Below, piece after piece: positions 3,559 to 24,626 of a stretch of 64,000 bases of DNA. The number at the start of each line of letters is the position of its first letter. Position 1 is the first letter of the stretch. Where the stretch lies: the NCBI RefSeq assembly GCF_003790525.1, contig NZ_CP033635.1; one strand, 5' to 3'. Source of the stretch: Escherichia coli (lineage in GTDB: Bacteria; Pseudomonadota; Gammaproteobacteria; Enterobacterales; Enterobacteriaceae). The translations under genes and the position numbers were made by a program. The notes under the pieces were generated by a model, which ran no database searches, was not told the DNA's origin, and worked only from the letters and a program-made list of their open reading frames with translations.

Positions 3559-4815
3559 ATGTTCCGCCGTCTGCTTATCGCAACAGTCGTCGGTATTCTT
3601 GCGGCCTTTGCCGTTGCCGGGTTTCGTCATGCAATGCTGCTACTGGAGTGGTTGTTCCTCAATAATGACTCCGGCAGTCTGGTCAATGCAGCGACAAATC
3701 TTTCCCCATGGCGACGGTTGCTAACTCCGGCGCTCGGCGGACTGGCGGCGGGTTTGTTGCTGATGGGCTGGCAGAAATTTACCCAGCAACGCCCTCATGC
3801 GCCGACCGATTACATGGAAGCGTTGCAAACCGATGGTCAGTTCGATTACGCAGCAAGCCTGGTTAAATCGCTTGCCTCTCTGCTGGTAGTAACCAGCGGC
3901 AGTGCAATTGGTCGCGAAGGTGCGATGATTCTTTTAGCTGCCCTTGCCGCCTCCTGTTTTGCCCAACGTTTTACGCCACGCCAGGAGTGGAAATTATGGA
4001 TCGCCTGTGGAGCTGCGGCGGGAATGGCTGCGGCCTATCGAGCCCCGCTTGCTGGCAGTTTATTTATAGCCGAAGTGCTGTTTGGCACTATGATGTTGGC
4101 CTCTCTCGGCCCGGTGATTATTTCCGCCGTCGTGGCGTTGCTGGTTAGCAATCTGATTAATCATAGCGACGCGTTACTCTACAGCGTACAACTCTCAGTG
4201 ACGGTTCAGGCTCGTGACTATGCGCTGATTATCAGTACAGGTGTGCTGGCAGGTCTGTGCGGACCACTGTTGTTAACGTTAATGAACGCCTGTCATCGTG
4301 GATTTGTAAGTCTCAAACTTGCGCCGCCCTGGCAACTGGCACTGGGCGGGTTGATCGTGGGTCTGCTTTCCCTGTTCACACCTGCAGTGTGGGGCAACGG
4401 CTATAGCACCGTACAATCCTTTTTAACCGCCCCGCCACTGTTAATGATCATTGCCGGGATCTTCCTCTGTAAACTGTTTGCCGTGCTGGCGAGTAGTGGT
4501 TCTGGCGCGCCCGGTGGTGTCTTTACACCGACGCTATTTATCGGTCTTGCCATTGGCATGTTGTATGGTCGTAGCCTGGGATTATGGTTCCCTGATGGCG
4601 AAGAAATTACGCTTTTACTCGGATTGACCGGGATGGCGACACTATTGGCGGCAACCACGCACGCGCCGATTATGTCGACGTTGATGATATGTGAAATGAC
4701 CGGGGAGTATCAGCTACTCCCCGGTTTATTGATTGCCTGCGTAATTGCGTCGGTAATTTCGCGGACGTTACACCGTGACTCTATCTACCGCCAGCACACT
4801 GCGAAGCATAGCTAA
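3559..4815 (+). CDS. clcB: ClC-type voltage-gated chloride channel/H+-Cl- antiporter
   Basis: 418-aa polytopic membrane protein from [15 protein letters not shown]...; start chosen at the internal ATG consistent with K-12 ClcB. Confidence 0.85.
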
Positions 4816-10204: not shown

Positions 10205-11026
10205 ATGCGTACAACCATTGCTGTAGTGTTGGGTGCAATTAGTTTGACGTCTGCTTTTGTGTTTGCAGATAAACCAGACGTTGCCAAATCGGCAAACGAT
10301 GAGGTCAGCACCCTGTTTTTTGGTCATGATGATCGTGTGCCAGTAAATGACACGACCCAATCACCGTGGGATGCGGTTGGGCAACTGGAAACGGCCAGCG
10401 GCAATTTATGTACGGCTACGCTGATTGCACCCAATCTGGCATTAACGGCAGGACACTGTTTATTGACGCCGCCAAAGGGTAAAGCCGATAAAGCGGTAGC
10501 GCTGCGTTTCGTGTCAAATAAAGGTCTTTGGCGCTATGAGATCCACGACATAGAAGGCCGCGTTGACCCGACACTAGGAAAGCGGTTAAAAGCAGATGGG
10601 GATGGCTGGATTGTACCTCCCGCAGCTGCGCCGTGGGACTTCGGTTTGATTGTGCTACGTAATCCCCCTTCTGGCATTACACCGTTGCCGTTATTTGAGG
10701 GAGATAAAGCCGCGCTTACCGCCGCATTAAAAGCAGCTGGTCGTAAAGTGACTCAGGCGGGCTACCCTGAAGATCATCTCGATACGTTGTACAGTCATCA
10801 AAACTGTGAAGTGACTGGCTGGGCGCAAACGTCGGTGATGTCGCATCAGTGCGATACCTTGCCGGGAGACAGCGGTTCGCCTCTGATGTTGCATACCGAT
10901 GACGGCTGGCAATTAATTGGGGTACAAAGCTCGGCTCCTGCCGCGAAAGATCGCTGGCGCGCCGATAACCGGGCCATTTCTGTTACCGGTATTCGCGACA
11001 AGCTGGATCAACTGTCGCAAAAATAA
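10205..11026 (+). CDS. ydgD: secreted trypsin-like serine protease family protein
   Basis: 273 aa with signal peptide, TAGHC and GDSGSP serine-protease motifs. Confidence 0.85.
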
Positions 11027-11064
11027 TGTTCAAACGCTGCCCGACAGTGCGGGCAGCGTGTTCA

Positions 11065-11394
11065 TCAGGCAAGTTTCACCATGATCATTCCAGCCAACAG
11101 CAAGACCAGGCCAATCCAGCCTTTACGATTTAACCGTTGACCAAACAAGATCCAACCTGCGGCTAACGTGGCGGCAATACCAAACCCGCCCCACAATGCA
11201 TAAGCGACAGACAAGTCGATCCCTTTAACGGCCTGAGAAAGCGCACTAAAGGCAGCCAGCACCGCCGCCAGGGAGAGCAAGCCAAATATTTTGCGACGAA
11301 AGCCGTCAGAAAATTTCAAAAAGACGTTAGCAACGATTTCCAGCACGATTGCCAATGCCAGCCAGGCGGCGTGAACCCATTCAAACTGCGCCAT
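11065..11394 (-). CDS. mdtI: SMR-family spermidine export protein subunit MdtI
   Basis: 109 aa, 4-TM small multidrug resistance fold; overlaps mdtJ 3' end. Confidence 0.88.
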
Positions 11395-11746: not shown

Positions 11747-12157
11747 TGTCCTTCTCCTGCAAGAGAATTATTTTAATTTTCGCTTAATTCAGCGAAACCA
11801 AAGTAAAGTGGTCAAGCCCCGCGCATAGCGCAAGCTTAAGCAGGAGAAAGGACTAAAGCGCGTTGCGCCAGTGCTGCTCACCTACGAGCAAGATAGTGGA
11901 TGAGGTACGAAGATGGGTAAATGTAGAAAATAACGTCCTGAACAAATTGTCCATAATATTACAATTATCCGCAGTGTTGCTTCTCGTCATCGCGGATGAT
12001 AATTGTCCTCGGTAGTTGAACACGCCTGATTTGTATCATAGCTTAAGAATTAACTCAAAATATTTTCACTTCTTTACCTGAGCGGTTTGATTTTCGTTAT
12101 GATGACGGAGCGAAAAAGACATTATTATTAGCAAAGGAAGAAAAAACGGGGACAAGC

Positions 12158-12294
12158 ATGGCAAAGCCGATCATCACGCTCAATGGCCTAAAAATCGTCA
12201 TTATGTTGGGAATGCTGGTCATTATTCTCTGCGGTATCCGTTTTGCCGCCGAGATCATCGTGCCGTTTATTCTCGCATTATTTATTGCTGTTAT
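12158..12294 (+). pseudogene. tqsA: 5' fragment of tqsA (AI-2 exporter), first ~46 codons; reading frame then runs into element DNA and stops after 7 foreign codons
   Basis: ATG at 12158 encodes [45 protein letters not shown]; the remainder of the gene resumes in frame at 23729. Confidence 0.85.
12286..12294. repeat. attL core (direct repeat 'tgctgttat')
   Basis: Identical 9-mer at 23720-23728; chromosomal tqsA sequence on the left, element-specific sequence on the right. Confidence 0.7.
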
Positions 12295-12365
12295 ATATAA
12301 CTTATTTCGCTTAACTAATTGATTTAATTAAATAATTTGCACTACAAAAAGTGCCAAAAATCGCA

Positions 12366-12391
12366 AATTAACTACACCATTAACTACACCG
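12366..12391. repeat. 26-bp element-end repeat 'aattaactacaccattaactacaccg' (tandem 'ttaactacacc'), candidate integrase arm-type site, left end
   Basis: Exact 26-bp copy at 23567-23592 next to the int start; both copies in direct orientation just inside the element ends. Confidence 0.6.
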
Positions 12392-13466
12392 TTCGGCGCA
12401 CTGTATGAAACAACGTGGAACAAATAGACACAAGCGGCAGGCTATACCGTTATCATTTTTCAGCTATCCGTCATGAAGCTGGTGGATGATCACGGATAAC
12501 CAGGCATCTACAGCGCCTTAAAAAGCTGAACCCGACAAACATTTCTGCTTATCGGGTCCGATCGCTCTTTCTACTCGTGGCAGATGAGTTTACTAGGAAG
12601 GGGGGAACATTGTATCAGGCTATCCCCTTTCTGTGCTGATTCGGCTGGTGAATGATCTACTTGGGGCACTACACTTTTCGGATAGTGCGGGTATCCGGTT
12701 TTCTGCCTCATCGAATTTTAAGCCTTCTGACGGCCTGTATATCATTTCCTGTGGAGTTGCCGCCCTGATAGCGAATACTGCGGCAGCATGTGATTTACCC
12801 CCCGTTCTGTTGATGTTTGATGTGGCTGGTTGATGTGCTGCCATGTTTTCCGCCAATGGTGGAAAAGCCCACCAGCGCAACGCAGGACGCATAAAACCAT
12901 TGCGATGACTCTGGACGCAAAACCACGTTTAACGATGTTTTGCACTGAACCAGAATACTGTTCGTTTTTGTCTCGATGTCCGTACGTATTACGTCCGCAC
13001 CTAATCCGGCATCATGCCCACCAGCGTAACGCATTTTTTTAATTTCGTGGCTGTGCGTCCACCAGCTACGCCGGAATGGGGTATTCCGTTTCAACGGAAC
13101 AGGTATGACGAACATAATCGCACCTTCTCCCGAAAACGGTGCGACCTGCATCATCGAAATGGTGATTCAGCTACTCGGCGATTTTCACCATTCAGAATCT
13201 GGCGGGTGAGTTATCCAGCTTCCACCAATGGGGGATTCTGGAACAATCAACGGGTTACGCCTTATCAGCAAAAAAGCACATCAACTGTAAAGGAAATCGT
13301 TATGGTTGCTGGTGGGCTGCGTCACCATCATGGTGATGATGCTGTCCAGTCAGCCGGAACGGTTGAACAGGGTGGCTATGGGTCACTCTGTTGTGCGTTA
13401 TTTGCGTGATCCTGGTACGGGGTGACTATCTTTCAGATAGTCGGTTGCCTGGTTACACGAAAAAAT

Positions 13467-13775
13467 TTACTTCCTGCGTTTATCCTGCTTTGTATGCCCG
13501 TGCTGAATGCCCCGCAGTGGATCTTCTTTTTTCAGGTCGATCCCCATGTCCGTTAGTGTTTTTGTGGCGGCGGTTCTTATGGCACAAATCAGGTCTCTTT
13601 CCGGTTCCCGGGTTATGGTTGCCTTCCGGATGCATGCCGTTCGTCGTTCCGTTACATACTGACGCGCTTCATCACTTGCCGCCTGTTTCAGTAACTCACC
13701 CCAGCGATTAGCCGCCCGTCGCCATAAACCTTTCGCTTCCAGTTCTTCCGCTTTGTCATCATGCACCATAAGCAT
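13467..13775 (-). CDS. PerC-family-like putative transcriptional activator (copy 2)
   Basis: N-terminal MVHDDKAEELEAKGLWRRAANRWGEL resembles PerC/Pch activators (recalled) and is a paralog of the 17352-17624 ORF; start chosen at an internal Met. Confidence 0.45.
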   Translation of the reverse strand: MLMVHDDKAEELEAKGLWRRAANRWGELLKQAASDEARQYVTERRTACIRKATITREPERDLICAIRTAATKTLTDMGIDLKKEDPLRGIQHGHTKQDKRRK

Positions 13776-13883
13776 AATCCCATTGATACCTGTTAACTCT
13801 GAATGGTTGGTTTCTGTTCTTTTGATAATTTCCCGCATAGCTTATTGTATGACAGTACTGTCCCACAATAAGGAGTTGCACGC

Positions 13884-14174
13884 ATGAGAATGACTAGGCA
13901 CAAAAAACAGATTCTTGAACTCTACAAACCTGAGTATCGCGATTGGGTGCGGGTGGAGGCCGGAGATCCGCCTTTTGATGTTCGTGGTGTGACAGTGCTG
14001 CTCTATGGTTCCGAATATCGGCGATATCACATAGAGGCAACACGAAGGACGCTAAACGCTATGGTTCGTGATAAGTTGCTGGAGCGTGTGAAAGTCCGTG
14101 AGCCACGTTTTGATGTGCGTATTGGTGGCGATGGTGCGCATTGCACGGTAATCCGCTATGGCCTGGTAAGGTAA
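13884..14174 (+). CDS. hypothetical protein (96 aa), only plus-strand gene in the left half of the element
   Basis: ORF with ATG start; internal duplicated motif PPFDVRGV / PRFDVRIGG; followed by the palindrome 'cagaatgtaaatttacattctg'. No family recognised. Confidence 0.4.
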   Translation: MRMTRHKKQILELYKPEYRDWVRVEAGDPPFDVRGVTVLLYGSEYRRYHIEATRRTLNAMVRDKLLERVKVREPRFDVRIGGDGAHCTVIRYGLVR

Positions 14175-14276
14175 GCCATCGGGTAAATCAGATGATTAAA
14201 TCACCAGAATGTAAATTTACATTCTGCCAGCCACCAGCTACCCTCCTCAAAATTGAGGACCCTTTTTATCAACTGG

Positions 14277-14558
14277 TTACCGCCGCAACCGTTCCGGCTT
14301 CTTCCACTGATAAGTGTTTTTCGCGCTCTCCTGATACATCGCCACGCGTCGACGGTATGCCAGCAACTCTAGTACTCTGATTCGTATGTCGCGCATATCC
14401 ACGCCGTTAAGCTCAATACCATCACGGCGCATTACATCAGCAACAACACGCACATAATTTTCGGCGGTCACGCTGTCCGGCTGCGTGGCCTGTTCGTCAT
14501 GCTGCTGGCTGATTCCGGTAACGCGGCGGATTAATCCCAGTAGTTCGACTTCTGTCAT
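14277..14558 (-). CDS. hypothetical protein (~94 aa) immediately downstream of the cos/terS region
   Basis: ORF-track frame 14277..14756; start moved to the internal Met (MTEVELLGL...) so that it does not overlap the cos-like sequence. Function unknown. Confidence 0.4.
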   Translation of the reverse strand: MTEVELLGLIRRVTGISQQHDEQATQPDSVTAENYVRVVADVMRRDGIELNGVDMRDIRIRVLELLAYRRRVAMYQESAKNTYQWKKPERLRR

Positions 14559-14591
14559 TGTGCCCCCATCGCTCTGATAGTCTGGTGTCGT

Positions 14592-14655
14592 CGGGTCCTT
14601 TCCGGCATGTGGACCCGTTACGGGGCGTCGACCTCGCGCGTTTTCACTATTTATG
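14592..14655 (+). other. lambda-like cos site, copy A (cosN plus flanking sequence)
   Basis: 'cgggtcctttccgg...gttacggggcgtcgacctcgcgcgttttcactatttatgaaaattttt' closely parallels the phage lambda cos junction as I recall it ('...acgggtcctttccggtgatccgacaggttacg|gggcggcgacctcgcgggttttcgctatttatgaaaattttccgg'); the 12-mer gggcgtcgacct at 14623-14634 differs from the lambda cohesive end at one base. Confidence 0.75.
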
Positions 14656-14671
14656 AAAATTTTTCGGGATC

Positions 14672-14770
14672 CATGTCCGGTTTCTCTGCAAGTTAACCAT
14701 ATGAAAAATATAAAAACATGCTTTCCATGAACCGGACATGCGCAAAAAACAGACACTAAAACCGGACATC
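14672..14770. promoter_or_regulatory. cosB-like array: three 'ccggacat' repeats (one inverted, two direct) with an AT-rich spacer, candidate binding sites for the element's Nu1-like protein
   Basis: 'catgtccgg' at 14672-14680, 'accggacatg' at 14731-14740, 'accggacatc' at 14761-14770; located on the cosB side of cos copy A, where lambda has R3-I1-R2-R1. Confidence 0.5.
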
Positions 14771-14837
14771 GAACCAGTTAACCGAAAGTGTGCACAAATC
14801 ACATTCATTGCTGCGAGTGATTAACAAGTTATCGGCT

Positions 14838-15272
14838 TTACTGTTCTGTATCGGCTGATTGCTCCATGCTGGCACGGCGAACGCTTACGGCATGACGCCA
14901 CCCAGCCAGAAAGCCAGCCATTTTATTTCGTGCCTTGCTCACATCTTCCGGTGAATAGCCGTAAATATGCAAACCTTCATCAAATCGATGTTCTGTTTCT
15001 TCACTGGAGTACTCGTCACGCTCAGATGAAAGCAGCCTCGCAAACATAATTTTTTCCAGCGCACTGGTTTCTACGTGATATCCGATGGTCTGAAGATGGC
15101 TTTTACCTGAATACCAAAGCAATGTATGCCCGATGTGATAACCGCCAGACTTTCCGCGATCCGCATTAAGATACGGCATCCCCTGTTTGGTCCATGCGCG
15201 AATAGTGGTTCTGTTAACCTTGAAATGTTCAGCTATTTCCTGCTGACTTACAAAACAAGCTTTATCAATCAT
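14838..15272 (-). CDS. terminase small subunit Nu1-like DNA-binding protein (possible packaging-specificity/redirecting factor)
   Basis: N-terminus QQEIAEHFKVNRTTIRAWTKQGMPYL parallels lambda Nu1 KKQLADIFGASIRTIQNWQEQGMPVL (winged HTH); C-terminal half unlike Nu1; flanked by cos-like sites. Confidence 0.65.
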   Translation of the reverse strand: MIDKACFVSQQEIAEHFKVNRTTIRAWTKQGMPYLNADRGKSGGYHIGHTLLWYSGKSHLQTIGYHVETSALEKIMFARLLSSERDEYSSEETEHRFDEGLHIYGYSPEDVSKARNKMAGFLAGWRHAVSVRRASMEQSADTEQ

Positions 15273-15339
15273 AATGTTACCTTAACTGCATGGTTAAATA
15301 TCAATCAAGTGGTGGTGGTGTCACCTTCACGGAAAAACG

Positions 15340-15403
15340 TCATAAATAGCGAAAACGTGCGAGGTCGACGCCCCGTAACGGGTCCACATGCCGGAAAGGA
15401 CCC
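15340..15403 (-). other. lambda-like cos site, copy B (inverted copy of A, cosN plus flank, without the 'ccggacat' array)
   Basis: Reverse complement matches copy A at 62 of 64 positions; lies ~70 bp upstream of the Nu1-like gene start on the same strand. Confidence 0.7.
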
Positions 15404-15404
15404 G

Positions 15405-15430
15405 CAAAAAAAGCCGGATTTCTCCGGCCT
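15405..15430 (-). terminator. rho-independent terminator after the head-gene cluster (minus strand)
   Basis: Minus-strand hairpin ggccggagaaatccggcc followed by a T-run; related hairpin motif at 17324-17345. Confidence 0.5.
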
Positions 15431-15502
15431 TGTCTCAGATGGTTTTCAGTATGCGATAGATGTCGCCGTCATCGCCCTGGTTTGTGCCATCGTTCCCCCT
15501 GC

Positions 15503-15838
15503 TTATCGGGCCAGCGGCTGAACGGATACGCCGGAACCCGCAAAGGCGGCGCATTTTTTCGCATCGGTGTCGACGCTCTCAGGCCAGTTAACGGCGGCAA
15601 TATTGAATATCCCCGTCTTGTAACACTGTGCTGATTTCTGCTTTGACGTGTCCACAGGGTACGAGGTCAGATAAACAGCCTTGCCAGATTCCTTACCATC
15701 CCACGCCTTAAACTCGCCATTGTCTGCCAGCATCAGCGGGGTAAATTCCTGAATAACGCCAGCATCAGCGGCAAAATGTACCAGCGTCGTGGATACCTGT
15801 TGGCTGCCTGAAAATAACTCAATGTATGGAGCGTCCAT
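15503..15838 (-). CDS. head decoration protein, lambda gpD-like
   Basis: 111 aa; motifs TPLMLADNGEFKAWDG, YKTGIF, NWPE and KKCAAFAG parallel lambda gpD (TPLMLDTSSRKLVAWDG, YKSGTF, LWPE, KKRTAFAG) as recalled. Confidence 0.7.
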   Translation of the reverse strand: MDAPYIELFSGSQQVSTTLVHFAADAGVIQEFTPLMLADNGEFKAWDGKESGKAVYLTSYPVDTSKQKSAQCYKTGIFNIAAVNWPESVDTDAKKCAAFAGSGVSVQPLAR

Positions 15839-15849
15839 AGAATCCCCCG

Positions 15850-16905
15850 TTAAGCAATTTTGACGGTAACAAATTTGCGAATATCTGCCGGTACAGGCTG
15901 CGGTGCGCTGTGCGTCTGCACGTACTCAATCGCCGGATCGCCGTCCTCAATCCAGTTTTTCGGGTAGTACATGTTTTGCGTTGCGCCCGTTCTTACCGCT
16001 TCCTGATCCATAATCGCACCATATGCCACCAGCCCTTTATTGTTGGTGTTACCCAGGACCAGCAAATCAGGCTCAAGGAAATATTTTTCGGTCCCGTCGC
16101 TGTCAGTGTATTTGCCGGAATAGACGATAAGGGCCAGATCACCAAGATAGCCTTTAAAGCTCACCACTTCGCCCAGGTTTTTACAGGCCAGCTCGGCGGC
16201 GGATTCTGATCCACGGGAAAGATCGTACAGTTCACGGAATTTTTTAAAGCTGCGTAATGTGCGCCATACCTCACCGCCCATAATCATGACGTTGGCGGGG
16301 CAACCTGCCTGATCAGCATAAAGCTCGATGTCATAGATTGGGTCGTGCATGTCTTTATCCTGCTGGGACCATTTTTTACCACTGGCCTGCTGTATGATGC
16401 AGTTTTCCGGTATTTTCCAGTCGATTTCATAGCGTTCTATGCCTTCGCCCTCAATGATGTTTTTTCCGGTCGTTACCGCATTCACCGCCAGCCATTCCAC
16501 GCGCGCCTTAATGGCGTTTATCTGGCGGCGCATGTTGCCAGTAATCAGGCGCATACGGCGGTAAGTTGGATCGTTAAGCTGTGCCGGATCTTCTCCATCC
16601 ATGCGCATGATGGTCTTTGTTGGATCGATTTCGTGCTTTGGCTTCATGTAGCCTGGTTTAATCGTGCTGGTTTCGTACCCTTTATCGCGCTGGACCTGAC
16701 TACCCACCATAGGAGAACAGAACGCTGACATCGTAACCTCTTCAATGTCCAGGGTGTCCAGCATGATGTTTTGGGTGTTGAAGGTCGCCACGTTCGGGAA
16801 AAACAGCGTGGTAAACAGCGGACTAAATTTATATTCCGAAATATCCCCGCGATTCAGGTACGCGAAAAGCTGGTTAGTTGTAAGTGCCTTTGCTTTGCCT
16901 GTCAT
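15850..16905 (-). CDS. major capsid protein, lambda gpE family
   Basis: 351 aa; YKFSPLFTTLFFP and PGYMKPKHEIDP parallel lambda gpE FKFDPLFLRLFF and PGYVKPKHEVNP; similar length to gpE. Confidence 0.75.
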   Translation of the reverse strand: MTGKAKALTTNQLFAYLNRGDISEYKFSPLFTTLFFPNVATFNTQNIMLDTLDIEEVTMSAFCSPMVGSQVQRDKGYETSTIKPGYMKPKHEIDPTKTIMRMDGEDPAQLNDPTYRRMRLITGNMRRQINAIKARVEWLAVNAVTTGKNIIEGEGIERYEIDWKIPENCIIQQASGKKWSQQDKDMHDPIYDIELYADQAGCPANVMIMGGEVWRTLRSFKKFRELYDLSRGSESAAELACKNLGEVVSFKGYLGDLALIVYSGKYTDSDGTEKYFLEPDLLVLGNTNNKGLVAYGAIMDQEAVRTGATQNMYYPKNWIEDGDPAIEYVQTHSAPQPVPADIRKFVTVKIA

Positions 16906-17111
16906 TATTCACCTCCGTGAACCTGATTGATACCCAGCGCCGCACGCAAATAGGTGCGCACCTGCCAGCCTGTTGACGGCTCAACCATCGCCAGCGGATC
17001 AAGTCCTGCCGCAATGCCTGCTTTTACATTCTGCTGGTGGCGTTCCTTGAGCGCCTCCACGATGTCGGGGCTTATGTAGACCGTCACCCCGCCTTTTTTC
17101 TCTTCTGCCAT
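16905..17111 (-). CDS. hypothetical protein (68 aa), first gene of the head cluster
   Basis: ORF with ATG start, stop overlaps the capsid gene start; no family recognised. Confidence 0.4.
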   Translation of the reverse strand: MAEEKKGGVTVYISPDIVEALKERHQQNVKAGIAAGLDPLAMVEPSTGWQVRTYLRAALGINQVHGGE

Positions 17112-17323
17112 AGTCAGAAATTCCTCTTTGACTTAAAAAATCATAACTGGATGTTCATCCAGTCCTGATTATAATCATGATTGCATTTTGCGCAACAATA
17201 TTGAGTTACGTTGCAAATTATGAAATGATTATCCCGATCATGTGTGTCAGTTCACCATAAAAAACCTCGTATACAAAAGCCCCATAAGCCCCCTGTGACC
17301 TTATCGGGCTTTTTTTAGGCGTA

Positions 17324-17345
17324 AAAAAGCCGGATTGCTCCGGCT
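17324..17345 (-). terminator. rho-independent terminator downstream of the PerC-like gene (minus strand)
   Basis: Minus-strand hairpin gccggagcaatccggc followed by TTTTTT. Confidence 0.5.
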
Positions 17346-17351
17346 GTGTGC

Positions 17352-17624
17352 TCACTTCTGCGGGTAGTTGCGCCATATTGCTTTGCCAATACCAGCTATC
17401 CCCATTTGTTTTTCAGTGCGATTAACTGACCTTTTCAGAGCGCCTAAATCATCCGGCGGCTCCGGTGGCCTCTGTGCCTTACGGATACATTCCGCGCGAC
17501 GCATTGCCACCTGTTCGCGCTCCTTGTCTGTCTCCACCAGCCTCATAACTTCACCCCATCGCGCCGCCGCCCTCCGGTAAAAGCCTTTTGCCTCGAGTTC
17601 CTCCGCTATGCGGTCATGTACCAT
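17352..17624 (-). CDS. PerC-family-like putative transcriptional activator (copy 1)
   Basis: MVHDRIAEELEAKGFYRRAAARWGEV...; paralog of the 13467-13775 ORF; start placed at the internal Met just after the ssb stop. Confidence 0.45.
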   Translation of the reverse strand: MVHDRIAEELEAKGFYRRAAARWGEVMRLVETDKEREQVAMRRAECIRKAQRPPEPPDDLGALKRSVNRTEKQMGIAGIGKAIWRNYPQK

Positions 17625-17634
17625 CGTCACCCCC

Positions 17635-18045
17635 TCAGAACGGAATATCATCACCGTAAGGGTCATCGCCTCCCGCTGGTGGCTGATTACCCTGTGTGCC
17701 TGTGGTTTTGCGTCTGTTCCCGCCAGGACGTGCCGCACGGGCACTGATTACGCTGTCTGCAATAACCTGCCAGCCCTGCCGCGTTTCCCCGTTCTGTCCG
17801 GTCCACTGGCTGACCTGCATCGTGCCGGATACGCTGGCAACGTCGCCTTTTTGATGTTTAGCCAGAAAGTCGGCCTGTTTGCCAAATGCGATGACCGATA
17901 ACCATAACGTCGCCTGTCCGTCCTGTGCCTGGCCGCATGGTAAAGATACCGCCATACGCGCCAGCGTCATCGGTGTACCCTTACTGGTCTGTTTTACCTG
18001 CGGGTCGTCCACCAGCCGCCCGTAAGCTGCTATCTGTGCTGTCAT
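17635..18045 (-). CDS. ssb: single-stranded DNA-binding protein (SSB)
   Basis: 136 aa with OB-fold-like core, Gly/Pro/Gln-rich linker and the acidic C-terminal tail ...DDIPF typical of SSB. Confidence 0.7.
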   Translation of the reverse strand: MTAQIAAYGRLVDDPQVKQTSKGTPMTLARMAVSLPCGQAQDGQATLWLSVIAFGKQADFLAKHQKGDVASVSGTMQVSQWTGQNGETRQGWQVIADSVISARAARPGGNRRKTTGTQGNQPPAGGDDPYGDDIPF

Positions 18046-18284
18046 GCTGTCTGCTCTCCGGTTTTAACGTTGATGGTTGTTACCTGTTCTGCTTCGGCAA
18101 TATCCCGCTCTGTCAGCGTGGCAAAGTTTGCCGCCGTCGTTGTCATGAATGCGCTTATCAGTTCGGGATGTGCTTTCGCGTATCCTTCCCCTGTGTTGCG
18201 GTCGATGATTTTTATCGCCACCCTCAGCCAGTGCTCTGTAAGGTCAATGGCGCGGTGATCTGTCTTTTTGTGGCTTACCTTCAT
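18042..18284 (-). CDS. hypothetical protein (80 aa)
   Basis: ORF in the replication module, overlaps ssb start by 4 nt (coupled); no family recognised. Confidence 0.45.
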   Translation of the reverse strand: MKVSHKKTDHRAIDLTEHWLRVAIKIIDRNTGEGYAKAHPELISAFMTTTAANFATLTERDIAEAEQVTTINVKTGEQTA

Positions 18285-18287
18285 GAT

Positions 18288-18656
18288 TTACTCCAGAGTA
18301 CCGCTATTGCTGCTGTCGTTAACCGGATACCAGGCAAATACCATCGATTCACCACAGTGAACAAACTTCTTATCCGGCAGATAAAGGCACTCGCACATTC
18401 CCTCATCAGGACTATGCGGACTCATGCCCAGCTCACTGGTCAGCACGGGTAAGATTTCGCGGCAGGTGTTCCCCGCACCGAAATAATCAACCTCACAAAG
18501 CGCCCATGCAGCAATCGGGCTGTACCATTCCGTGCCGTCGTCGTCTTTGAACTTAGCCCACCAGCCAGGAAGGGCAGTTGATATGCTCAGTGTTTCAATT
18601 TCAGTGTTCATAAATTTACCTTCGGTATTTTGTCCTGCTGTTCGATTTTTATTCAT
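18288..18656 (-). CDS. hypothetical protein (122 aa or shorter)
   Basis: ORF directly downstream of the iteron region; Cys-containing; no family recognised. Confidence 0.45.
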   Translation of the reverse strand: MNKNRTAGQNTEGKFMNTEIETLSISTALPGWWAKFKDDDGTEWYSPIAAWALCEVDYFGAGNTCREILPVLTSELGMSPHSPDEGMCECLYLPDKKFVHCGESMVFAWYPVNDSSNSGTLE

Positions 18657-18860
18657 TGCTCACCATCTCTCACTTTTACTACTCACTTTTTAAAGCGTCT
18701 CGCTTCGTCTCACTTGAGATTTTTGTGTTTTGTATGTGCATGTTTCATAAGTGTTTTTTCACTGCTCACTTTTGAGCATGTATACAGGTGAGAAAGTGAG
18801 TAATTGTGTTAATATTTTGTAAAAACCTCACCATTACTCACTTTTACTACTCACTTTTTA
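18657..18860. repeat. iteron array, candidate replication origin ('ctcactttt' repeated ~7 times, one inverted, around an AT-rich core)
   Basis: Copies at 18669, 18682, 18709 (variant), 18765, 18793 (inverted), 18837 and 18850; 'ctcacttttactactcacttttta' occurs twice; lies immediately 3' of the rep ATPase gene. Confidence 0.6.
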
Positions 18861-20264
18861 CAGTGGTCCTACATCATCACCATCAATGTAAATCACGGCG
18901 TCTTTTTCCAGTTTGGCTAACCATCGCCGCATATTTTTCACGTCATACCCAAGCCGTTTCATGTCATCACGTAACAGCGGGATCGTGCACTTGTCGCCGT
19001 TCTGTGTGCGTGAACGGATGCACCCCCATAGCGCGGTATGGTTTTCCGTCTTGTTGCCTGCCTCCTCGATGCGCTCCAGTTCAGCAGGGGCGCGGGGAAC
19101 GTCAATCACCACCATGGACACAATTTCTTCGCCATCTGTATCGGTGAACACCTCCACGCTTTTAAGGTCGTATGCACTCTCTTTTGGCTCCTCTGCGTCC
19201 TTCATCTTCGTACACGCCGCAACCAGTGCTGTAACGTCTGAATTTTCCCTGCTGATTCGGTACTCTGCATCAAGCGCGGCACGGAATGCACTGGAACCAC
19301 GCGCCCCCTTTGTTTCATCCTTGCCGGAATGGTGAACCACCAGCACCGTGGCCCCTGTGGCCTGCTTTATCGCGTCACACCCCTGGATAAATGCGCCCAT
19401 ATCACGGGAATCATTTTCATCATTCCCACCAAAGCAACGGGCCAGCGTGTCGATCACAATCAGCCGCACATTTTCGCCCGTTCTGCTCTTAACAAGTCCG
19501 GCAGTCCTGATAACCTGCTCCACATAGTCAGGCGATGCAGGGAAAACAGGCGCGTTAATGATGCACAAATCTGTAACCACCTTGTCGTGGGTTATCTCCC
19601 ACGCCTTAACGCGGCGTTTTACGCCCATGCTGCCTTCACCAGCGATATAGATAACCGCACCCTTACTTACCCTGCGGCCTCCCCATGCCATACCTGTGGC
19701 AACATGGCACGACCAGGAAATGGCGAGGAACGATTTATAAGAACCGCTGGCCCCGTAGGTGCTGCATAATGACTCAGCCGGAATAAGCCCCTTAATGACG
19801 TAGCTTTGCTGCGCATCGAATCCCTCAGAACCCCATGAGATGGGAAGTGTGATTTTTCGCTTTCCGCCATTCATGACCAGGCTTTCCCCTCTCTCCCATG
19901 TTTCCCGTAGTCGTGGTAGCTGGTCGCTCCAGTCCTCCAGCAGTTCGAAATTTTCAGAAAGTAGCCGCGCCTCCTGGACTCCGGCGATCGCCAGTTTTGT
20001 GGCAATGGTCAGCATCTGCATATCGTCCAGGTTTCCGGCGCGTATGACCTTTACCCTGTATCGTCCTTCATCAACAATCTGTAAGTTGTCCAGTTCGCTT
20101 AACTGATAACGGCCCAGATAAACCGGAGGGATGGGATCGCCTGCTTTTTTGGCCTGTGCAATCATGTAATGTTCTGCAAAGGAGTGAGCATTATCACCCG
20201 CAAAAATAACCGCCTCAGTGTGTTTATCTTTCGGTAACAGTTTTACGTTCGGTGCAAGTTTCAT
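18858..20264 (-). CDS. replication protein with RecA-like P-loop ATPase domain (RepA/DnaB-like, satellite pri-rep type)
   Basis: 468 aa; Walker A YGASGSYKS, Walker B-like RLIVIDTL, HHSGK motif; C-terminal region possibly DNA-binding; iterons directly downstream. Confidence 0.65.
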   Translation of the reverse strand: MKLAPNVKLLPKDKHTEAVIFAGDNAHSFAEHYMIAQAKKAGDPIPPVYLGRYQLSELDNLQIVDEGRYRVKVIRAGNLDDMQMLTIATKLAIAGVQEARLLSENFELLEDWSDQLPRLRETWERGESLVMNGGKRKITLPISWGSEGFDAQQSYVIKGLIPAESLCSTYGASGSYKSFLAISWSCHVATGMAWGGRRVSKGAVIYIAGEGSMGVKRRVKAWEITHDKVVTDLCIINAPVFPASPDYVEQVIRTAGLVKSRTGENVRLIVIDTLARCFGGNDENDSRDMGAFIQGCDAIKQATGATVLVVHHSGKDETKGARGSSAFRAALDAEYRISRENSDVTALVAACTKMKDAEEPKESAYDLKSVEVFTDTDGEEIVSMVVIDVPRAPAELERIEEAGNKTENHTALWGCIRSRTQNGDKCTIPLLRDDMKRLGYDVKNMRRWLAKLEKDAVIYIDGDDVGPL

Positions 20265-20548
20265 TTCTTACCCCCTGCGACCAGCATTTCACGGATTTTG
20301 CGGATATAACTTGCAGCACGTTTCTGATTAACGGCTTTACGATGGCCCACCAGCGTGAAATCACGCCGGAACTGATAAACAGGCATAACGCAGTCATATT
20401 CGTAGCCTTCACGGCGGTAAGTGATGCGACGTTCCTCCACGCCCTTAATCATTACCGTGCCGCCGTAGTTATCACGGAAAATATCGCCGGGACGGATTTC
20501 AGGACGAGCGGGGCCGCTGGCATTAACGCCAGAATTTTTATTTTTCAT
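20261..20548 (-). CDS. hypothetical protein (95 aa), translationally coupled upstream of rep
   Basis: ORF overlapping the rep start by 4 nt; basic; no family recognised. Confidence 0.45.
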   Translation of the reverse strand: MKNKNSGVNASGPARPEIRPGDIFRDNYGGTVMIKGVEERRITYRREGYEYDCVMPVYQFRRDFTLVGHRKAVNQKRAASYIRKIREMLVAGGKK

Positions 20549-20553
20549 GTTTT

Positions 20554-20781
20554 TTATTCTCCGGTGTGCTGTTCTTTATATCTGTCGTGAATTGCCATCA
20601 CTGTATTTAATTCATTAATAACAGCCGTTAATAGCGTACGCACGGCAGAAAACATCATTGAATCAGATTCATCGCCACTTTCCTGCACATCAATTAAATT
20701 AAGTAGTAATGCGTCCATTTCCTTTGCGCGGATTAATGCCTTTTCACAATGAAAAATAACACCAAAGGGTATTTTATTCAT
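20554..20781 (-). CDS. hypothetical protein (~75 aa; ORF-track frame extends to 20823)
   Basis: First gene of the minus-strand replication operon; start uncertain (MNKIPFGV... versus the upstream Met). Confidence 0.4.
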   Translation of the reverse strand: MNKIPFGVIFHCEKALIRAKEMDALLLNLIDVQESGDESDSMMFSAVRTLLTAVINELNTVMAIHDRYKEQHTGE

Positions 20782-21060
20782 GACTCCCCTCCTGACGGAT
20801 ACGGGCGGCGAATACAGCGACACAACCGGACGGGCAACGGTTACGCGCTTCGCGTTCCGTCCAGGCGGTCACGTGGATAATTTGAGATTCTCCGGCACTC
20901 AGTGCCAGAAAACGCCACACAAAGGCGGTTTGTGTGTGCGCTAGTCGTGGGGTATGCTGTGTTCCAGCCATAATCGTTACTCCTGTTAACGGTTTGGTTA
21001 GACGCCCTGCATGTGTTACAGCACTGCGGGGCGTTGTCTTTTTAACGGCTTTCGTGATAG

Positions 21061-21104
21061 GGTGTACACCTATCAAGCAAAAACATAACGCTATAGGTGT
21101 ACAC
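21061..21104. promoter_or_regulatory. perfect 12-bp inverted repeat (gtgtacacctat ... ataggtgtacac), candidate operator abutting a small regulator gene
   Basis: Read directly from sequence; the 3' half ends 1 nt before the ATG at 21105. Confidence 0.5.
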
Positions 21105-21299
21105 ATGTCAACAGTTATTAAGCGAGATAAAAAACCAAAGGGAACAGGAAAAGCCCCCCCATTCCATATGCGAATAGCTCCAGAACTGAAAGAGCAGTTT
21201 GATAATGAGGCCAGCAATGATGGGGTAAGCCTAGCCAACTGGCTTAAAGAGTTGGGGCGCGCCGAACTAAAGCGACGCGGCATTGAACCTAAAGGCTGA
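21105..21299 (+). CDS. small basic protein (64 aa), possible ribbon-helix-helix/YlcI-YnfO-like prophage regulator
   Basis: MSTVIKRDKKPKGTGKAPPFHMRIAPELKEQFDNEASNDGVSLANWLKELGRAELKRRGIEPKG; family assignment from memory only; divergent from the replication operon. Confidence 0.4.
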   Translation: MSTVIKRDKKPKGTGKAPPFHMRIAPELKEQFDNEASNDGVSLANWLKELGRAELKRRGIEPKG

Positions 21300-21302
21300 T
21301 GT

Positions 21303-21426
21303 ATGACTGAAAAGCAGACCGATAACAAACTTTCTCTACCAGAGAATAAACCAGCAGGCTTCTTACCAAGAAAAATCCTTGATGAGATCAAACGCCGCCA
21401 GCGCCGCAAGGCCAAAGAGCAGGAAT
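21303..21426 (+). CDS. possible small protein (41 aa, Lys/Arg-rich C-terminus)
   Basis: ATG 4 nt after the preceding stop; MTEKQTDNKLSLPENKPAGFLPRKILDEIKRRQRRKAKEQE; followed by a strong hairpin terminator. Too short for the ORF track. Confidence 0.25.
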
Positions 21427-21460
21427 AGCCCACCAGCAAGCCAGCACACTGATCACATTG

Positions 21461-21490
21461 GCCACCGTGACAGGTGGCCTTTTCTTTGCC
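21461..21490 (+). terminator. rho-independent terminator (ggccaccgtgacaggtggcc + T-rich tract)
   Basis: Perfect 7-bp stem with 6-nt loop followed by ttttctttg, just after the 41-codon ORF. Confidence 0.55.
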
Positions 21491-21752
21491 CGTTATCCGG
21501 CAATTGTGGCGCTTCGCCACACGGTTGATATAATTCCCCTGCTCAGATTCATTTTTTGCGCGGCAGGTAAATTGTTCAGAAAGGCGGCTCCTTATCGGGG
21601 CCGCTTTTTTTATGTCTGAAAAACCGCGATTTTGTTGTTTTTCAGTTTCACCAGGCCGAACGAAGCCCCGCCCATGTTCGGGCGTATATCCAGTCTTCAT
21701 GGTTAAATCTCTGTATTAGTGGATGGGTGGCGGCTGTGTGCCGCCAGTCTTT

Positions 21753-21941
21753 TTAGTGAACTGCCTCGCAGCTTTCCTTCCATGCCAGAACTTCGGATAA
21801 AGACCAGCCAACGGAACGACCGCCCAGCTTACGCCGTGATGGGAATTGTCCGGCCTTTTCCAGGCGGTAGCGGCATGAGCGGCTAAGGCCTGTTAGCTTT
21901 TCGCATTCTTTTTCACGTATAAAGCGATCAGTGCTTAACAC
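21753..21941 (-). CDS. alpA: AlpA-family (Phage_AlpA) transcriptional regulator
   Basis: 62 aa; ...EKLTGLSRSCRYRLEKAGQFPSRRKLGGRSVGWSLSEVLAW... matches the AlpA HTH signature; adjacent to int. Confidence 0.75.
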   Translation of the reverse strand: MLSTDRFIREKECEKLTGLSRSCRYRLEKAGQFPSRRKLGGRSVGWSLSEVLAWKESCEAVH

Positions 21942-22315
21942 TATTGCCCCCTTTCGTTTCTTAAAGAGTTATTTCGTGTTCTATTGCGTTGGGATGTGTC
22001 TGATTGTGTCAGGGTGATTCAGAGTTGGCAAATGTTGGTGGCGGGTATTTTACAGAAACGGGGTGATTTTAATAAAAATCATTTTAATTCAGTATTATGC
22101 AAAGGCATAAAATCTCGTTTTATGCCTTTTTTCTCACTATTTAAAGCGTTATTCGCTAATGTATAAAAAACCAGTTGAGCATTAAAAATCAGCAACTTAT
22201 AAATCTGTATACTTTTTGACCTCTTGTTCGTGGTTGTTTCACGTTGTTGTGTATTGTTGCACGTTGTATCTGTGCACTTATCCAGTATGCGCATACTGAA
22301 AAAACACGAAAAAAA

Positions 22316-23563
22316 TTATTTTCTTCTGGCTACTGGTAGCGTGGTTACGTTTTCATGTGCTCCCGCCAGTATCTCCAACCGCTCCACCCACATATCCAGC
22401 GCATTGCGTTTCGCATCCAGATAACGGGAATGATTATAAACTCGCTGCATTCCTGGCATCTGGTGGCCTGTAAGCTGCTCCACGACGTGAGGATCCACGC
22501 CTAAATCGTTCAGCATCGTTGTAAAGGTGCGCCGGATGTCATGCAGTGACCATTGAGGGTGTTTTAGCCTCCTGTGCGCTAATCTGCCGTACTGCGATAC
22601 GCTGGCCTCCTGTTTCACTTCCCCCAGTAATAAGCCCGTGTGCCTGTTCTGCTCCACCAGCCGCGTGACGAACGGCAGGATCGCTTCCGGTATGGGCCGG
22701 AATATTGCGACCTTCGTTTTGCTGTGCTCCTTCGGAACGGTCCAGAGCATTTCCGTGAAATCCCACTCCCCGATCTCCGATAACCTCAGTTCTACCGTCC
22801 TGGCTCCGAAGACAATCAGGAGGCGGATTAGTGCGACGTAGTAAGGGGAAAATATTTTTTTGTCCAGTGCCTGCAATAATTCGCCCAGTTCTTTGGTGCT
22901 TAAGACACGTTCGCTTATATCCGGTTTTTTCCCAACGTCCGCCACGTTCAGATCGTCCAGAACGTTGCTGATTGCATAGCGCCGCCTCCGGCAAAACTTA
23001 AGCGCCTGTTTGCACGCCTGTAGCACGAATCCGGCAGTAACAGGCGTTCGCTTTGCCACCCGATCAAAACAGGCCAGCCAGTGCCGTAGCTCGCATTTAT
23101 CCAGCGGCATAGCACCAATGTGCTGTATTACGTGATTATTAAGTCGCCTTTTCAGGGCGATATAATCCACGCGGTTTTCCTTTACGTAAGACTCAAGCCA
23201 GTAGGTGAGCGCATCTCCAACCGTTACAGGCTTTAACGCTTCCTGCATGGTGTAATTCATCTCATGACGTGGATTTTTCCCCTCAGCCAGCCATGCGCGA
23301 CACTGGGCGGCTTTTTCCCTGGCTGATTTCAGGCTCAGATCAGGATAATTTCCCAGCTTAATACGTTCCGGTCGTGTCTCTCTTCCCGTTCCGGCCCTGT
23401 AAGTGAAATACCAGGTTAAAAGGCCGCTGGTTGAATGCCTGACGCTCAGATTTCCACCGTCATTAAGAAAGGCTGTTTTTTGGGCGGGTGTGCCGTTGAT
23501 TTTCCTTAGCTGTGTATCGCTCAGCTTGTTAAGTGCTCTGGTCATAATTTTGAATCCGGTCAT
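22316..23563 (-). CDS. int: tyrosine site-specific integrase (P4-type)
   Basis: ~415 aa; N-terminal arm-binding-like region, C-terminal catalytic motifs (HDIRRTF, GHQ..VYNHSRY); located at the element's right end next to the arm-type repeat. Exact start uncertain (GTG/ATG/ATG cluster). Confidence 0.85.
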   Translation of the reverse strand: MTGFKIMTRALNKLSDTQLRKINGTPAQKTAFLNDGGNLSVRHSTSGLLTWYFTYRAGTGRETRPERIKLGNYPDLSLKSAREKAAQCRAWLAEGKNPRHEMNYTMQEALKPVTVGDALTYWLESYVKENRVDYIALKRRLNNHVIQHIGAMPLDKCELRHWLACFDRVAKRTPVTAGFVLQACKQALKFCRRRRYAISNVLDDLNVADVGKKPDISERVLSTKELGELLQALDKKIFSPYYVALIRLLIVFGARTVELRLSEIGEWDFTEMLWTVPKEHSKTKVAIFRPIPEAILPFVTRLVEQNRHTGLLLGEVKQEASVSQYGRLAHRRLKHPQWSLHDIRRTFTTMLNDLGVDPHVVEQLTGHQMPGMQRVYNHSRYLDAKRNALDMWVERLEILAGAHENVTTLPVARRK

Positions 23564-23566
23564 CAC

Positions 23567-23592
23567 AATTAACTACACCATTAACTACACCG
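23567..23592. repeat. 26-bp element-end repeat (same as 12366-12391), right end, immediately upstream of int
   Basis: Exact 26/26 identity with the left copy. Confidence 0.6.
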
Positions 23593-23719
23593 ATCGTTGC
23601 ACAAAGGGCTACAACGTGAAACAAGCTGGAACAAGAAAAATCACAAATTTGTTTATAATCAAAAACATAATGCACAACCTGAAACATTATGAAACGGCAA
23701 AAAACACTAATTGATAAAG

Positions 23720-23728
23720 TGCTGTTAT
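23720..23728. repeat. attR core (direct repeat 'tgctgttat')
   Basis: Identical to 12286-12294; element sequence on the left, tqsA sequence on the right. Confidence 0.7.
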
Positions 23729-24626
23729 TCTTAACCCGCTGGTGCAACACATGGTCCGCTGGCGAGTGCCGCGTGTACTGGCGGTGTCGATTTTGATGAC
23801 CATCATCGTGATGGCGATGGTGTTGCTGTTAGCTTATCTGGGTTCCGCGCTCAACGAGTTGACGCGGACGTTACCGCAATATCGCAACTCTATTATGACG
23901 CCGCTGCAAGCGATTGAACCGTTGTTGCAACGCGTAGGGATTGATGTCTCAGTTGACCAACTGGCGCATTACATTGATCCGAACGCGGCAATGACGTTGC
24001 TCACCAACTTATTGACGCAGTTATCTAATGCCATGTCATCAATCTTTTTATTGCTGCTGACGGTGCTGTTTATGTTGCTCGAAGTGCCACAATTGCCCGG
24101 AAAATTTCAGCAAATGATGGTGCGTCCGGTTGAAGGGATGGCGGCGATTCAGCGTGCGATTGACAGTGTGTCTCATTATCTGGTGCTGAAAACAGCCATC
24201 AGCATCATCACCGGCCTGGTCGCCTGGGCGATGCTCGCCGCACTCGATGTTCGCTTCGCTTTTGTCTGGGGATTGCTGGCCTTTGCGCTTAATTACATCC
24301 CTAATATTGGTTCAGTTCTCGCGGCAATCCCCCCTATCGCTCAGGTACTGGTGTTTAATGGCTTCTACGAAGCGTTGCTGGTGCTGGCGGGATATCTGCT
24401 AATTAATCTGGTCTTCGGCAATATTCTGGAGCCGCGCATCATGGGACGTGGGCTGGGGCTTTCCACATTGGTGGTATTTTTGTCGTTGATTTTTTGGGGA
24501 TGGTTGTTAGGACCGGTGGGTATGCTGCTTTCCGTGCCGTTAACAATTATTGTCAAAATTGCGCTTGAACAAACAACGGGAGGTCAAAGCATCGCCGTTC
24601 TGTTAAGCGATCTCAACAAAGAGTGA
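23729..24626 (+). pseudogene. tqsA: 3' portion of tqsA (AI-2 exporter, AI-2E/PerM family), separated from its 5' end by the element
   Basis: In-frame continuation ([12 protein letters not shown]...) of the fragment ending at 12294; upstream frame closed by tga/taa in element DNA; only an internal GTG/ATG could restart translation. Confidence 0.8.

Follow-up and report, generated by a model that had tools for sequence, protein, structure and literature searches.

A phage satellite inserted in tqsA

The stretch of DNA analysed here, 64,000 nucleotides of Escherichia coli contig NZ_CP033635.1 (64 kb; hereafter the window), contains an interrupted copy of the gene tqsA. As uninterrupted tqsA from thousands of genomes aligns with the window up to position 12294 and again from position 23720, an element of 11.4 kb lies inside the gene. 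The first-pass annotation of this stretch had pointed to two identical 26-bp repeats just inside the ends of the element and had read them as arm-type binding sites of its integrase; these repeats are the subject of this report. The element encodes a tyrosine integrase (Int), an AlpA-family protein, a RepA/AAA_25 helicase, SSB and PerC-family regulators, as well as a lambda-E-like major capsid protein and a D-like decoration protein. The int and alpA genes are followed by the replication module, the size falls within ~10–15 kb, the element has its own attachment (att) site, and it carries no tail or lysis genes. The order of int, alpA and replication genes is that of the Gram-negative phage-inducible chromosomal islands (PICIs; PMC6092414; 10.1101/2022.09.08.507074), and judged by its gene content the tqsA element is a satellite of the PICI type. 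Its integrase shares 94% identity with the one encoded by an O157:H7 element beside roxA, whose gene content fits the description of the cf-PICI EcCIEDL933. The element boundaries and the int and alpA genes are located as follows.

12286..12294: crossover identity block TGCTGTTAT (9 bp), attL copy; host tqsA ends at 12294, and the junction is intact as attP in the circular contig L039
23720..23728: crossover identity block TGCTGTTAT, attR copy; host tqsA restarts at 23720
22316..23545, minus strand: P4-like tyrosine integrase of 409 amino acids, in which Arm-DNA-bind_3 and catalytic domains are recognised and the central domain is matched weakly
21753..21941, minus strand: AlpA-family protein of 62 amino acids, an excision and induction regulator in Gram-negative PICIs (function from PMC6092414)

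The host gene, which encodes an autoinducer-2 (AI-2) transporter (12158–12294 and 23720–24626), is split near codon 46 and is not restored by the element. Among 5426 complete E. coli genomes, the junction of int, its arm and tqsA was at least 80% covered in 246.

Two doubled 12-bp motifs inside the element ends

On the plus strand of the window, the 26-mer AATTAACTACACCATTAACTACACCG was matched, with up to 3 mismatches allowed, only at 12366–12391 and 23567–23592; 100 dinucleotide shuffles gave 0 matches, and none is expected by chance. The two identical, co-oriented repeats described in the first pass are thus exact and number two. Their internal tandem structure, also described there, was resolved into two perfect 12-mers ATTAACTACACC per copy (12367–12378 and 12379–12390; 23568–23579 and 23580–23591), and these pairs of half-sites are referred to as motif A. 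The 8-mer core ACTACACC occurs five times in the 64 kb, four of them within the two repeats, against 1.0 expected. The weaker similarity said to continue beyond each copy is real: 12366–12434 and 23567–23635 share 77% identity over 69 nt (repeat family D3). The repeats lie 71 nt (left) and 127 nt (right) inside the crossover block TGCTGTTAT, in agreement with the earlier estimates of ~70 and ~130 bp, and the motif A pairs begin 77 bp (int-distal) and 148 bp (int-proximal) from the identity block. In sequence, motif A is unrelated to TGCTGTTAT and its flanks, and it is located outside the crossover region, in the attP arms.

12367..12390, plus strand: int-distal doubled motif A, 2x ATTAACTACACC; candidate integrase arm-type sites, with 0.86 mean pairwise identity across six att-site groups (see below)
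23568..23591, plus strand: int-proximal doubled motif A; candidate arm-type sites and candidate int operator, beginning 22 nt upstream of the int ATG

The right copy had been placed within a few bp of the integrase start. This holds for the GTG at 23566 chosen by the open reading frame (ORF) finder, which the repeat abuts, but not for the conserved ATG at 23545, which is 21 nt away. The GTG start adds seven codons that are absent from related integrases, and it was rejected because ATG 23545 is the start both in RefSeq and in an alignment of ten homologous integrases.

Two further candidates for what the repeats might be were set aside. An RNA explanation was dropped because an Rfam scan of 12000–24000 matched no family. 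IHF was rejected as the binder of the 26-bp repeat, since motif A bears no resemblance to WATCAANNNNTTR; a perfect IHF consensus is present elsewhere, at 12312–12324.

The integrase carries a predicted arm-type DNA-binding domain

Residues 8–95 of the integrase match PF13356 (Arm-DNA-bind_3) with an E value of 1e-18, indicating a separate N-terminal arm DNA-binding domain, and the sequence of this domain also matches those of 3JTZ/3RMP at 3.6e-5. An AlphaFold model of residues 1–110, with a mean predicted local distance difference test (pLDDT) score of 83, aligns structurally with the arm-type binding domains solved for the P4-like integrases 3JTZ, 3JU0 and 3RMP. Supportively, a Foldseek search with the modelled N-domain returned a probability of 1.00 and a root-mean-square deviation of 1.4 Å to both 3JTZ and 3JU0.

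The doubled layout is kept at six chromosomal att sites

Using int together with its arm as the blastn query, relatives were found in 1245 of the 5426 complete E. coli genomes. Ten E. coli elements were compared, representing six att sites: tqsA (the window and MS15046), roxA (O157:H7), smrA/abgR, yifB, clpS/cspD (three elements) and thiM/rcnR (two elements), with Int protein identities to that of the window from 94% down to 66%. In all ten, a co-oriented doubled motif of 12-bp period was found in both arms and nowhere else in the 34–37 kb loci, and the distance from pair to pair in the reconstructed attP was 232–233 bp (233 bp in the window). The ATG-to-core distance was likewise confined to 27–39 nt. 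The identity blocks differ from site to site (TGCTGTTAT, AAATATGTCC, TCACGATATT, ATCCGCTATT, ATAACTATCAT and ATACGGGTATTTCT).

One integrase clade with the same arm layout is thus found at six chromosomal targets (loci L004–L012), and the differing identity blocks, 9–14 bp in length, are flanked by inverted half-sites resembling TGATAAA / TTTATAA. As far as these sequences go, retargeting appears to alter the crossover region only.

The fixed spacing bears on whether the repeats could serve merely as a transcriptional operator of int, or as another kind of regulatory site, with no part in the recombination complex. The start of the proximal copy, 22 nt upstream of the int ATG, would suit an operator, and P4 Int and KplE1 IntS are reported to autoregulate through sites that overlap the promoter. 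The distal copy, however, adjoins no gene start, the nearest ORF ending ~90 nt away and reading toward the repeat, and promoter control alone would leave the constant 232–233 bp in six att-site groups unexplained. Operator and recombination roles are not mutually exclusive, but a purely regulatory role is, in our judgement, highly unlikely.

Intact attP sites were found outside chromosomes. The IMG/VR contig L039 (IMGVR_UViG_3300045988_152974) is circular, with a 119-bp terminal overlap and a unit of 10,979 bp, and its attP junction (1–300 and 10980–11098) is as predicted, the two pairs being separated by 233 bp. L092, a permuted metagenome contig, carries an intact attP of the clpS/cspD type (1–280). 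These two contigs are direct evidence that these satellites exist as excised or packaged DNA in nature. The presence of circular forms in viral metagenome contigs is consistent with induction, packaging and transfer that depend on a helper phage, but is not proof of it. A second scan of the viral contigs, by integrase alignment and limited to the best 80 relatives, returned mostly the same close relatives, with only L092 and L094 being new and no distant clade reached.

A more distant integrase, 50% identical to that of the window, is encoded in the Klebsiella record PQ569648. Doubled TGTATAAACA pairs are present there 234 bp apart, and the nearer pair ends 20 nt before the int ATG. This attP-like region (L080; 13723–14001) and the PICI-type integrase stand in a 106-kb record labelled as a phage (Klebsiella phage P12620-1), which may include a co-assembled or embedded satellite.

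Across one representative of each of the six att-site groups, motif A pairs were the best conserved part of attP (mean pairwise identity 0.86), followed by a block adjacent to the core (0.85), the motif B boxes described below (0.74–0.75) and the remainder (0.44–0.69). The core-adjacent block is likely a core-type integrase or IHF contact.

23701..23719, plus strand: core-adjacent conserved block AAAACACTAATTGATAAAG, 0.85 identity across groups

The two copies might also be a functionless product of neutral duplication, or of gene conversion between the element ends. The 69-nt similarity of the arms could stem from a duplication, and the copies are near each other in the circular form. Against such an origin, the layout is kept with different motif sequences in integrases down to 50% identity and in P4 (24%), motif A is conserved above most of its surroundings, and its four half-sites change together. 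We give this explanation next to no weight.

A second motif with a 10-bp period and its candidate partner AlpA

About 22 nt beyond motif A in each arm, two or three units of the GRAACAA type follow one another with a 10-bp period (motif B), which account for the weaker similarity after each repeat. The pattern GRAACAA-N3-GRAACAA is matched four times in the window against 0.13 expected: twice, overlapping, in the distal arm, once in the proximal arm, and once on the minus strand at 22224–22240.

12407..12433, plus strand: int-distal motif B, GAAACAA / GGAACAA / GACACAA; candidate AlpA boxes
23618..23644, plus strand: int-proximal motif B, GAAACAA / GGAACAA and a degenerate third unit, from the tandem pattern search
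23681..23700, plus strand: further B-like pair close to the core, GAAACATTATGAAAC; at the matching place, CGAACAC stands twice in the clpS/cspD elements
22224..22240, minus strand: motif B pair GAAACAAccaCGAACAA (I3, I4) in the gap that separates the int stop from alpA; the start of alpA lies ~280 nt downstream of it
12312..12324, minus strand: perfect IHF consensus AATCAATTAGTTA, between the crossover and the distal motif A

B-type boxes are also located upstream of alpA in related elements. In EcCICFT073, AlpA acts as an activator of its own promoter, and induction depends on it (PMC6092414); the pair at 22224–22240 fits this positive autoregulation and, from its position and sequence, is a candidate AlpA autoregulatory site. 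AlpA was found there to be without effect on Pint (PMC6092414), which speaks neither for nor against integrase binding. Two types of AlpA could be distinguished, and the B boxes differ with them: type 1 (window, roxA, tqsA, smrA/abgR and yifB) is accompanied by TG[G/A]AACAA, and type 2 (clpS/cspD and thiM/rcnR) by CGAACAA.

Motif A covaries with the integrase N-domain and not with AlpA

The clpS/cspD group retains the core AACTACACC, whereas the thiM/rcnR group has GACCACACA in all four half-sites and also the most divergent integrase N-domain (61–63% identity over residues 1–100). AlpA is near-identical between these two groups, both of which have the B variant CGAACAA. Reciprocally, the window and the clpS/cspD group have different types of AlpA (60% identity) and the same A core. 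Since motif A varies with the integrase N-domain while AlpA stays constant, and B varies with the type of AlpA, motif A follows the integrase and motif B follows AlpA.

A finer association was found at the flanks of the half-sites. The N-terminal variant SVKYLTSGKL goes with the flank A[G/A]T[G/A], and SVRHSTSGLL with ATT[A/G], in 31 of 31 arms and with no exception. SVKYLTSGKL is carried by MS15046 at tqsA, by the yifB element and by 12 relatives from viral contigs, and the association with A[G/A]T[G/A] is therefore present in two att-site backgrounds (tqsA and yifB). The distal arms of MS15046 and yifB differ from those of their nearest relatives at the flank positions only, with the surroundings unchanged. 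In the model, the covarying integrase residues are 35–37, with which one predicted strand ends, and 42, which immediately precedes the following strand. The N-domain types and their motif A pairs are the following.

Window, SVRHSTSGLL: ATTAACTACACC
MS15046 and yifB, SVKYLTSGKL: AGTGACTACACC
thiM/rcnR, EIKHSKGGKL: CTGACCACACAA

By this comparison, which draws on few independent lineages, the sequence of motif A is specific to its integrase.

These data weigh directly on the proposal that the doubled 12-bp motif is bound by AlpA instead of the integrase. Directionality factors of the AlpA family bind direct repeats, AlpA is required for PICI excision and induction, and Tommasini et al. name AlpA as a possible binder of the analogous motif in helper-embedded PICIs (HE-PICIs; PMC10111431). 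AlpA was nevertheless rejected as the binder of motif A on the covariation just described, the same AlpA going with different A motifs and different AlpA types with the same A core. Moreover, sites of directionality factors are typically direct repeats spaced one helical turn apart (PMC7498355), which fits the 10-bp B boxes and not the 12-bp A pair, and it is the B boxes, not motif A, that recur upstream of alpA. Binding of motif A by AlpA is accordingly rated as very unlikely.

A host nucleoid protein, or another protein of the element such as the PerC-like or Icd-like ones, could be the binder as well, and several small proteins that resemble DNA-binding proteins are indeed encoded in these elements. 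A clade-specific motif that changes with the integrase, however, argues against a host factor. The cargo, in turn, differs widely among elements that share the motif (the O157 cf-PICI vs the capsid-plus-decoration set of the window), with int and alpA as the only constant neighbours; and it is an int-attP segment that was cloned from EcCICFT073 to test integration (PMC6092414). We therefore see very little probability in a binder of this kind.

Comparison with known attachment sites

Pierson and Kahn are said to have described the attP arm sequence repeats of P4 in 1987. The P4 record NC_001609 annotates a 12-bp ‘attP arm sequence repeat’ as tandem pairs at 3942–3965 and 4151–4174, with the core at 4078–4097 between them, and the pair at 3942–3965, AGATGCCCCCAA TTATGCCCCCAA, is 16 nt upstream of int. 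The window resembles P4 in having co-oriented 12-bp tandem pairs on both sides of the core, one of them just upstream of int (22 nt in the window), a P4-like integrase with Arm-DNA-bind_3, and an AlpA-family protein, which in P4 is Vis, an excision factor. P4 Int represses its own promoter, and Vis does likewise, as cited in PMC7286903. The two systems differ in the core (ATGCCCCC in P4 vs ACTACACC), in the pair distance (209 bp vs 233 bp) and in the integrases, which are 24% identical; only P4 has two extra single repeats, an inverted one at the start of int and another within the gene; and P4 targets a tRNA-Leu gene, the window element the coding sequence of tqsA. In the window, its relatives, P4 and the Klebsiella record alike, the half-sites form tandem pairs with a 12-bp period.

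In HE-PICIs, Tommasini, Mageeney and Williams (2023; PMC10111431) described a doubled motif tgTGTATTGCantgTGTATTGCa with an 8-bp core TGTATTGC and a 12-bp period, copies of which are found 81 and 132 bp from the attP centre, one on each side, and they suggested that an integrase tetramer contacts the four half-sites through its arm domains. They did not find the motif in other PICIs. Both the HE-PICIs and the window element are Gram-negative PICIs with int and alpA, and both have a doubled 8-bp core, co-oriented and at fixed distances (77 and 132 bp in the window, measured from the centre of the block to the nearer edge of each 24-bp pair). The window layout differs in belonging to another integrase clade, in its chromosomal targets and in its clade-specific sequences: on the int strand, TGTATTGC and GGTGTAGT have only TGTA in common. 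On the int-coding strand, the PICI variants GGTGTAGT, TGTGTGGTC, TGTATAAAC and TGTATTGC share a TGT[A/G] start. The window core ACTACACC (GGTGTAGT on the int strand) thus differs from both P4 ATGCCCCC and HE-PICI TGTATTGC; the repeat sequence is clade-specific, and the window motif is therefore a distinct member and not the same motif as that of P4 or HE-PICIs. A full-text literature search for the motif string returned no relevant paper.

The integrase of phage lambda is heterobivalent, and its arm sites P1, P2 and P'1–P'3 flank the core and differ from the core sites; IHF sites are located between arm and core, and the directionality-factor sites are direct repeats. Lambda differs from the window in having five sites (2+3) at ~10-bp spacing, an N-domain of an unrelated family, and int expressed from pI/pL rather than via the att arm. 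The likeness to lambda also draws on PMC9791396.

Two other systems combine arm sites with control of int. In ICEMlSymR7A, an integrative and conjugative element, the P4-family integrase IntS requires arm sites P1–P5 (TGKTGGTATC) for integration, RdfS binds beside the arm site upstream of int, and attP-bound integrase limits int transcription (PMC11963761); its five dispersed sites contrast with the 2+2 tandem pairs of the window, and the element is not a phage satellite. In KplE1 (IntS/TorI), int is negatively autoregulated, its promoter region overlapping with arm-type sites of the att arm (PMC2951348); the integrase family and site layout differ from those of the window, where autoregulation is proposed from position.

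A model of the attP complex

Taken together, the arm-binding domain, the fixed geometry, the conservation, the covariation with the integrase N-domain and the annotation of P4 support, by computation, the arm-site interpretation put forward in the first pass, and we consider it highly probable that the P4-like tyrosine integrase of the satellite uses the two 26-bp repeats as its arm-type binding sites. The arrangement is already known from P4 and related satellites, and the window adds another doubled arm repeat of the P4/PICI type and no new mechanism.

Several points weigh against this interpretation. The covariation comes from few independent lineages, with about three motif classes and a flank variant in two backgrounds. 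Co-inheritance, or gene conversion between the arm copies, could mimic selection, because all parts lie within ~400 bp in the circular form. Tommasini et al. themselves left AlpA or another protein possible as the binder of the HE-PICI motif (PMC10111431). Finally, a consensus scan of 21700–23800 and inspection of the sequence by eye gave no sigma-70-like promoter in the int-proximal arm; as Pint was not located, autoregulation of int is proposed from position alone.

If the repeats are integrase arm sites, the excised circle would join both arms into one attP, in which co-oriented 12-bp pairs 233 bp apart present four half-sites. The four N-terminal arm-binding domains of an integrase tetramer would occupy these four half-sites, while the catalytic and core-binding domains would engage the crossover region of attP and of tqsA, namely TGCTGTTAT with its flanks. 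IHF, through the site at 12312–12324, would bring the arms back to the core by bending them. AlpA on the GRAACAA boxes of 10-bp period may bias the complex toward excision and may autoregulate alpA, and the integrase bound to the int-proximal pair probably represses its own gene, as reported for P4.

Other repeats in the element

Two further sets of repeats are present in the element. At 18659–18863, a 37-nt direct repeat (92%) and the 17-mer TTTTACTACTCACTTTT, present three times at 83–85 bp spacing (families D5 and D7), lie directly 3′ of the RepA-type helicase gene (20264..18858, minus strand) and are candidate replication-origin iterons. A 78-nt inverted repeat with 91% complementarity (14592–14669 / 15327–15404; I1) flanks a hypothetical ORF at 14838–15272 and has no Rfam match.

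Implications for satellite integration

The comparison yields an attP map for a widespread clade of satellites. The map comprises the four half-sites of the arms, the candidate AlpA boxes, one IHF site and the crossover, and shows a single arm layout in use at six chromosomal targets. Integrase sites are also told apart from AlpA sites, a question unsettled for HE-PICIs. In practical terms, the map could be used to design a minimal attP for integration vectors and to predict cross-talk between co-resident satellites.

A broader reading is put forward tentatively, and we regard it as somewhat doubtful. The doubled 12-bp layout, with pairs ~209–234 bp apart and one just upstream of int, may be a family-wide, modular specificity code of PICI/P4-type integrases, in which a short N-terminal segment (about residues 12–42, with a predicted strand-loop-strand) reads the half-site, and in which this segment and its sites are swapped independently of the core and of target specificity. 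The suggestion arises because the SVKYLTSGKL / A[G/A]T[G/A] module is found in both tqsA- and yifB-targeting integrases. If true, such a code would extend the claim of Tommasini et al. (2023) that the motif is absent from other PICIs, and arm specificity would become predictable from sequence.

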